Positions 26,989 through 27,378 of a DNA stretch of 64,000 nt are shown one piece after another. The notes under the pieces are model-generated. The model saw only the letters and a program-made list of their open reading frames with translations. It did not search any database and had not been told where the DNA came from. The translations under genes were made by a program, and so were the position numbers. This DNA is from an uncultured Alphaproteobacteria bacterium. GTDB lineage: Bacteria; Pseudomonadota; Alphaproteobacteria; RUG11792. How positions within the stretch are numbered: the first letter of the stretch is position 1; the number at the start of each line of letters is the position of its first letter. The stretch lies in assembly GCA_944390585.1 (NCBI GenBank), contig CALXQI010000011.1:8190-72189 (forward strand), read 5' to 3'.

Positions 26989-27378
26989 AAAAGCGGAACA
27001 TTTTTGACAAAACTAAAATTTTCTGCTTAACATGAAAATACAGGTGGCTGGCAGTTATAACAAAGCCATCACCACAAGCCTGTAGTTTTATGTTAATAAA
27101 AAAGCGGGACATTTTTGACAAATCAAAAACTTTCTGCTTAACATAAAAATACAGGTGGCTGGTAGTTATAACAAAGCCATCACCACAAGCCTGTAGTTTT
27201 ATGTTAATAAAAAAAGCGGGACATTTTTGACAAATCAAAAATTTTCTGCTTAACATAAAAATACAGGGGTGGTAGCAGTTTAACAAAGCCACTACCGACA
27301 AGCCTGTAGTTTTATGTTAATAAAAAAGTGGGACATTTTTGACAAAACTAAATTTTTCTGCTTAACATAAAAATATGG
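26989..27378 (+). repeat. Tandem repeat, 111-112 bp period, about 3.5 copies; each unit is a promoter-like module plus a long imperfect hairpin
   Basis: TTGACA recurs at 27004, 27115, 27227 and 27339. The unit reads AAGCGGGACATTTTTGACAAA..TTCTGCTTAACATAAAAATACAGGTGGCTGG..AGCCATCACCACAAGCCTGTAGTTTTATGTTAAT. Confidence 0.9.
27339..27368 (+). promoter_or_regulatory. Proximal promoter-like copy (TTGACA-18-TAACAT) for the connector-leuS unit
   Basis: TTGACA lies at 27339-27344 and TAACAT at 27363-27368, 68 nt upstream of ATG 27436. This last repeat copy lacks the hairpin. Confidence 0.4.

Follow-up and report, generated by a model that had tools for sequence, protein, structure and literature searches.

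A strain-variable tandem array of promoter-like modules and hairpins between thrS and a connector-leuS gene pair in an uncultured Holosporaceae-like bacterium

Introduction

In an uncultured alphaproteobacterium, the spacer between thrS and a gene for a gp6-like head-tail connector carries one promoter-like module four times and a long hairpin three times. The question raised by this locus is whether such an arrangement is a regulatory device, a mobile element that has been amplified, or a by-product of the way in which repeats are gained and lost. We analysed a 64-kb stretch of DNA, hereafter the window (C11:8190-72189 of genome G000), together with the whole genome (876,557 bp, ~0.88 Mb; 16 contigs; 32–35% GC) and other assemblies of the same species.

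In GTDB this genome is the sole one of its genus, and the surrounding family consists of metagenome-assembled genomes (MAGs) of 0.5–1.1 Mb. The best relative of its LeuS (61% identity) is labelled "uncultured Holosporaceae bacterium", with the remaining matches at about 50%; because of this label, and without further proof, we call the host Holosporaceae-like.

Results

Anatomy of the array

Tandem Repeats Finder (TRF), which the preliminary description had proposed for counting the copies, reported an array at 26989-27375 with a period of 112, 3.5 copies, 92% matches and a score of 635, the only array with a period of at least 20 within the window. The array is non-coding and, as had been described, lies between the thrS stop (26921) and the next operon, which begins with the connector gene (ATG 27436). 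The repeat unit of 111–113 bp is composed of a promoter module (P) and a hairpin (H). In the copy alignment, P comprises 52 nt (n = 4) and reads, in order, a box AAAAG(C/T)GG(G/A)ACA, TTT, TTGACA, an 18-nt spacer, TAACAT and AAAAATA, while the remaining ~60 nt of the unit (n = 3) is joined with the last 14 nt of P into a 70-nt imperfect palindrome, H. The units are contiguous, head-to-tail and wholly repeated, in the order P-H-P-H-P-H-P, and the earlier statement that this is not a CRISPR array holds on these grounds.

Table 1 Features of the thrS-connector spacer and its flanking genes, in window coordinates
Feature	Positions	Strand	Remarks
thrS (threonyl-tRNA synthetase), upstream flank	25014..26921	+	Pfam tRNA-synt_2b, HGTP_anticodon, tRNA_SAD
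130-aa ORF created by the array, treated as spurious	26909..27301	-	Pfam: no family
36-nt left-flank segment	26953..26988	+	present in the 3.5-copy alleles only (window, L121, L125 vs L122, L123, L124)
Promoter module P1	26989..27040	+	box AAAAGCGGAACA; -35 TTGACA 27004-27009; -10 TAACAT 27028-27033
Hairpin H1	27027..27096	+	70-nt imperfect palindrome, -10 box inside left arm; -23.4 kcal/mol, z -4.0
Promoter module P2	27100..27151	+	box AAAAGCGGGACA; -35 27115-27120; -10 27139-27144
Hairpin H2	27138..27207	+	-22.5 kcal/mol, z -4.8
Promoter module P3	27212..27263	+	box AAAAGCGGGACA; -35 27227-27232; -10 27251-27256
Hairpin H3	27250..27320	+	-26.4 kcal/mol, z -6.0
Promoter module P4, proximal	27324..27375	+	box AAAAGTGGGACA; -35 27339-27344; -10 27363-27368; followed by unique leader, not H
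Unique 60-nt leader	27376..27435	+	small hairpin 27382-27399; SD AAGGAG 27422-27427
gp6-like head-tail connector gene (GTA/phage remnant)	27436..27852	+	Pfam PF05135
leuS	27845..30370	+	ATG overlaps connector stop (ATGTTTGA); gene calls in L122-L129, Pfam

A consensus scan confirmed the TTGACA hexamers previously noted at 27004, 27115, 27227 and 27339, each placed 18 nt before TAACAT. Each TTGACA-N18-TAACAT agrees with the consensus at 10 of 12 positions, and the arrangement of a sigma-70-type promoter, -35 and -10 hexamers 16–18 nt apart, is thus found four times at the level of sequence. The preceding box had been given as AAGCGG(G/A)ACA; this is correct for copies 1–3, but copy 4 carries a C>T change (AAAAGTGGGACA).

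We asked if the two ends of the array hold decayed copies of the hairpin. Local alignment to the hairpin was no better than that of shuffled sequences for either the left flank (540 of 2000 shuffles reached the score) or the tail of copy 4 (1964 of 2000), and the 36-nt segment at 26953-26988 showed no significant similarity to the hairpin. Since the left flank and the copy-4 tail are not hairpin remnants, the array truly has the order P-H-P-H-P-H-P. The tail of copy 4 also folded no better than shuffles (z -0.5), in agreement with the earlier remark that this copy lacks the hairpin and runs into the Shine-Dalgarno sequence and ATG 27436. The 60-nt leader that follows it is unique and was identical across all 10 other assemblies examined.

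The minus-strand ORF over the array (Table 1) is treated here as spurious; it was uncalled in the alleles with fewer copies (1.5 and 2.5), and the 112-bp period is not divisible by 3. As a separate candidate, a replication origin with iterons was rejected: the array shows no GC-skew switch, and the sign change near 20 kb tracks gene orientation.

Copy-number alleles between strains

Other alleles were collected by an exact-protein look-up with the connector protein, which gave ten contigs from other assemblies with flanks 96–100% identical to the window. The gap between the thrS stop and the connector ATG was 514 nt in the window, L121 and L125 (P-H-P-H-P-H-P, 3.5 copies), 365 nt in L123 (P-H-P-H-P, 2.5 copies, both hairpins being a distinct variant, GGTGGTTGGAAG) and 255 nt in L122 and L124 (P-H-P, 1.5 copies). 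Every allele can be written as (P-H)n-P with n = 1, 2 or 3, and no lone-P allele was seen among the alleles examined. The 365-nt and 255-nt alleles also lack the 36 nt of left flank at 26953-26988. A copy-number-variable locus, one of the three readings offered by the preliminary description, was therefore borne out among assemblies of the same species. The copy numbers come from short-read metagenome assemblies, which are prone to collapse near-identical repeats, and the value of 1.5 may be an under-count; the distinct hairpin variants and the 36-nt indel nevertheless indicate that the alleles genuinely differ. In the window and the other assemblies, the P copies are mosaics of two spacer types.

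In L121 (ERZ28613609 scaffold_3650, 3410-5933) we also noticed that leuS is split into two ORFs (659 + 191 aa), with four gap positions relative to the window, so that this essential gene has either undergone a frameshift or been misassembled.

The promoter module and its genome-wide box

The sequence AGCGGGACA occurs 23 times in the genome, where a rough composition estimate predicts ~1.5 copies, and the 10-mer AAGCGGGACA occurs 22 times against none for its reversed control. A crude ORF call puts the coding share of the genome at ~85%, yet 20 of the 23 box copies are intergenic. All 23 face a downstream gene on the same strand, which for the intergenic sites lies 58–377 nt away. An A-run comes before the box, and a -35-like hexamer follows 3–9 nt later, with no further element at a fixed distance. 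Among the downstream genes are ybaB, clpB, adk, pnp, rnj, a peroxiredoxin gene, fusA and alaS, and the box is also present upstream of the GTA-like genes for terminase, portal, capsid and connector, which are scattered in the genome. At least two copies precede each of these four GTA-like genes, whereas most housekeeping genes have a single one. The enrichment is strong in this genome only, the 40 family genomes showing a weak excess at most.

Because P has this genome-wide promoter grammar in common with the other sites, it looks like a bona fide promoter, that is, a complete sigma-70-type promoter of the host's usual kind. Of the 12 variable sites among ten distinct P variants, eight lie in the 18-nt spacer and none coincides with the 12 positions of the hexamers (p = 0.027). 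This invariance is modest evidence that all P copies have stayed promoter-competent.

Structure of the hairpin

The three hairpins, which had been described for copies 1–3 as including the -10 box, fold at -22.5 to -26.4 kcal/mol with z scores of -4.0 to -6.0 relative to dinucleotide shuffles. Their inverted termini are 18 nt long (TTAACATAAAAATACAGG / CCTGTAGTTTTATGTTAA). Compared with H1 and H2, the inner 30 nt of H3 is rewritten and forms an alternative helix, GGTAG/CTACC, with identical outer arms.

The label "terminator-like" given to the hairpin earlier did not survive a consensus terminator scan of 26500-28000, which returned no terminator-like site. The base of the stem is A-U-rich, the "loop" is a structured stretch of ~30 nt and the tail reads G-UUUUAUGUU, all of which depart from an intrinsic terminator. 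Canonical terminators are rare in this genome in any case (43 of 516 gene ends, versus 21 in the antisense control). Among four variants of the hairpin, RNAalifold found no compensatory pairs and hence no covariation. An Rfam scan of 26000-28500 with E up to 1 gave no family, its sole match being plant miRNA noise at 23.6 bits against a gathering score of 74, and no complementary target stood out in the genome. Of the serial promoter/terminator modules that had been proposed, the promoter part is thus upheld by the genome-wide grammar and the invariant hexamers, whereas the terminator part is not, given the failed scan, the rarity of canonical terminators and the lack of covariation. A transcript from a distal P is predicted to be ~60 nt long, with a 5' hairpin of -15 to -18 kcal/mol followed by GUUUUAUGUU.

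Other tandem arrays in the genome

Whole-genome TRF, filtered for a period of at least 90 bp and a non-coding location, detected 25 arrays with periods of 95–335 bp and 1.8–4.5 copies, 9.8 kb in total, with no cross-similarity among their units. Examples lie at C15:29051-29619, C15:77842-78409, C15:42377-42738 and C9:10865-11237. The array in the rpmD-HU spacer (C15:42377-42738, period 117) is also sample-variable, with 1.9, 2.7 and 3.1 copies. The thrS-connector array accordingly has the properties of a variable-number tandem repeat (VNTR): direct repeats in non-coding DNA, a copy number that varies between strains, and membership in a set of many unrelated arrays.

Among the 25 arrays, only the thrS-connector array has a unit with strong structure (z -5.1, against ~0 for most others), and hairpins as a general trigger of array formation were ruled out by the z scores of the others. 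The promoter box occurs in two of the 25, the thrS-connector array and an array upstream of the terminase gene; the latter has a period of 107, 2.2 copies and the order box, TTGACA, weak hairpin. Taken over all arrays, promoter-like matches show no clear enrichment (3.5 vs 2.2 per kb). Strong structure together with the box is exceptional among the 25 arrays and could reflect selection rather than accident.

TRF also listed two-copy repeats of ~80–85 bp at G000:C7:30215-30381 and G000:C16:9757-9910, whose units are tRNA-like (tandem tRNA duplications).

Distribution of the unit and of the locus

A whole-genome BLAST with the consensus unit, also proposed in the preliminary description, confined the full unit to the thrS-connector spacer, so it is not scattered genome-wide. 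Unit positions 39-111, the hairpin half, had no other match in the 876-kb genome; what recurs elsewhere is the first 17–37 nt of the unit only, and the first 37 nt of P is 89% identical to the promoter of the portal gene. The unit had no match among 40 family genomes, nor in plasmid records by blastn, and the P4-leader junction, sought as an exact pattern, did not occur in the JGI metagenome contigs scanned.

Of the 41 family genomes, 37 have the connector gene itself. The thrS-connector-leuS synteny is absent from the three nearest family genomes (G019, G011 and G003), in which the connector lies behind a divergent ~200-aa gene and ahead of ~95-aa genes, with unrelated upstream DNA. This different setting indicates that the array is lineage-specific. 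L021, the nearest relative by LeuS (61% identity), lacks a tandem repeat. At E up to 1e-20 the protein database yielded no homolog of the connector beyond the species itself, and it thus offers no sister species from which the ancestral state could be read.

Discussion

The array is most probably a minisatellite, or VNTR, whose copies arise from slippage or unequal recombination and which, as a by-product, has at most mild effects on expression. P-H units would be gained and lost through replication slippage or unequal recombination between P copies. Every allele starts and ends with P, and exchange between P copies is therefore the simplest route by which a P-H can be added or removed; the mosaic P copies, with their two spacer types, fit such an exchange. 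The same process would have produced the about 25 unrelated arrays of 95–335 bp in the non-coding DNA of this genome. P4, which alone precedes the conserved leader and the Shine-Dalgarno sequence, is likely the working promoter of connector-leuS and would make its mRNA, and the distal P-H units would be redundant copies. Transcripts from the distal modules are expected to start ~7 nt past TAACAT, inside the left arm of H, to carry the inner hairpin at their 5' end, and either to stop weakly at GUUUUAUGUU or to read through. Copy number would then alter expression only mildly, and the array would be mainly a mutational by-product.

Wolbachia VNTR-141 and VNTR-105 provide a close comparison, being intergenic with hairpin-containing periods of 141 and 105 bp and non-integer copy numbers from 0.8 to 7.3 (Riegler et al. 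2012, PMC3287509), the mechanisms proposed there being slippage and concerted evolution. Common to both cases are a reduced obligate-intracellular alphaproteobacterium, an intergenic position, one or more hairpins per period, highly similar periods and non-integer copy numbers that vary among very close strains. Unlike the Wolbachia VNTRs, the period here appears to contain a complete promoter with a genome-wide box, and a promoter stands at both array ends. The hairpin here is 70 nt and overlaps the -10 box, compared with 23 nt in Wolbachia. No promoter content was found for the Wolbachia VNTRs, and the word "promoter" is absent from PMC3287509.

In E. ruminantium, non-coding tandem repeats expand and contract between strains (Frutos et al. 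2006; summarised in PMC10710844), and recombination or slippage between copies has been proposed for them as well (PMC10710844). That genome resembles ours in its abundant, unrelated tandem duplications of 100–300 bp, mostly non-coding and strain-variable, but it belongs to the Anaplasmataceae and is ~64% coding, whereas the present one is Holosporaceae-like and, by a crude ORF call, ~85% coding. Our observations extend the "intergenic minisatellite" syndrome, earlier described in Anaplasmataceae, to a Holosporaceae-like genome, and the array can be used as a strain-typing marker for this uncultured endosymbiont-like lineage.

An adaptive tandem array is the next reading to be considered, and we regard it as unlikely. 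Each P-H would be an sRNA gene or a promoter-attenuator cassette yielding an NsiR1-like hairpin RNA of ~55–60 nt, or the extra boxes would recruit more activator, and copy number would tune RNA dosage or the expression of connector/leuS. The box, -35 and -10 are intact in every unit and the hexamers are invariant in the ten variants, the smallest allele is still P-H-P, and the predicted P transcript would present a 5' hairpin and then GUUUUAUGUU. The array of like grammar upstream of the GTA-like terminase and the multiple boxes at all four scattered GTA-like genes, where most housekeeping genes have one, point the same way. The invariant hexamers and the absence of a lone-P allele would both fit distal units that have a function. 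There is also a precedent in NsiR1 of Nostoc sp. PCC 7120, an sRNA of ~60 nt encoded by 12 tandem copies that each have a promoter of their own (PMC9045159). There, as here, the direct repeats stand ahead of a protein gene, and each joins a promoter with a common upstream motif to ~60 nt of structured sequence. Transcription and targets of NsiR1 have been experimentally shown, however, and it has a proper terminator and is conserved across genera, whereas the present array is species-specific and known from sequence; what we see is a resemblance, and membership is not claimed.

Against an adaptive array, the hairpin fails the consensus terminator scan, covariation is absent across the four variants with the inner helix of copy 3 simply rewritten, Rfam gave nothing beyond noise, no complementary target is prominent in the genome, and the unit was not found outside the species. 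Moreover, the 23 other arrays of the genome lack promoter-box and hairpin content, which means that array formation needs no function. Because H is not a canonical terminator, shows no covariation and has its copy-3 changes clustered in the inner 30 nt, we favour the by-product over an adaptive cassette or sRNA array. That the P-H units are working cassettes, either each making a ~60-nt hairpin RNA or using a factor loaded at the AAAAGCGGGACA box to read through the hairpin, with copy number setting RNA dosage or connector/leuS expression, seems to us quite improbable. If it were true, the terminase array and the multi-box portal and capsid promoters would together suggest a lineage-specific control circuit for the scattered GTA-remnant genes. 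If the duplicated promoters are active, natural slippage would change the number of promoters before an essential aminoacyl-tRNA synthetase and a GTA-remnant gene, and the AAAAGCGGGACA box would be an entry point to transcriptional control in an unculturable lineage.

Alternatively, the hairpin could have been inserted here as a selfish or mobile palindrome, of the RPE, REP or MITE type or a "mobile promoter", and amplified afterwards; a Rickettsia-type element was among the initial proposals. With the Rickettsia palindromic elements, REPs and MITEs it shares its type of host, an intracellular alphaproteobacterium, and its form, an imperfect AT-rich palindrome of ~70 nt; its 18-nt inverted termini and the 89% identity of the first 37 nt of P to the portal-gene promoter would suit such an origin. 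Those elements, however, form dispersed multi-copy families, often within genes, whereas the hairpin here is single-locus: the genome, the 40 family genomes and plasmids hold no second copy of the hairpin half, the junction probe was absent from JGI metagenome contigs, and the hairpin does not occur in coding regions. Moreover, the left "terminus" is merely the -10 region of the promoter. With the whole unit at a single locus, the array is not a dispersed palindromic element, and the mobile-element reading, to which we give very little credence, appears largely refuted by these sequence comparisons.

That the array is a mis-joined or artificially expanded repeat produced by assembly is scarcely credible, for although 5 of the 10 other-assembly contigs end within the array, where assemblers struggle, at least two further, independent assemblies (L121 and L125) contain the same 3.5-copy sequence letter for letter, L126 spans 3.1 copies, and the copies differ by distinguishing substitutions, so that assemblers can order them.

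The genome-wide occurrence of the AAAAGCGGGACA box and its multiplicity before all four GTA-like genes is the more intriguing side result of this analysis. Two to four box copies each are found at C15:180088-180326 (terminase gene, 180436-181662), C15:209079-209331 (portal) and C15:189989-190038 (capsid). The window has a further copy ahead of the peroxiredoxin gene, at 45279-45320 on the minus strand. The clpB gene (34222-36768, minus strand) is preceded at G000:C7:~36800-36830 by TTAGCACTC-N9-AAGTGCTAA, an inverted repeat resembling CIRCE, which overlaps the predicted clpB -35/-10 just downstream of the box copy. A candidate regulator is a 140-aa HTH protein (G000:C9:40329-40751, minus strand) with a box copy upstream of its own gene; its Pfam match to HTH_7, at 24.6 bits, is barely over the cut-off, and it has a weak match to the GcrA N-terminus. 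Three box copies (C10:45367-45470, C15:30076-30180 and C15:283590-283695), located ahead of rnj, fusA and a repeat protein, have in common on their downstream side a block of ~25 nt, TTGAAAGCGTTGCTGGATAAG, which holds a DnaA-box-like TTATCCAGC on the opposite strand.
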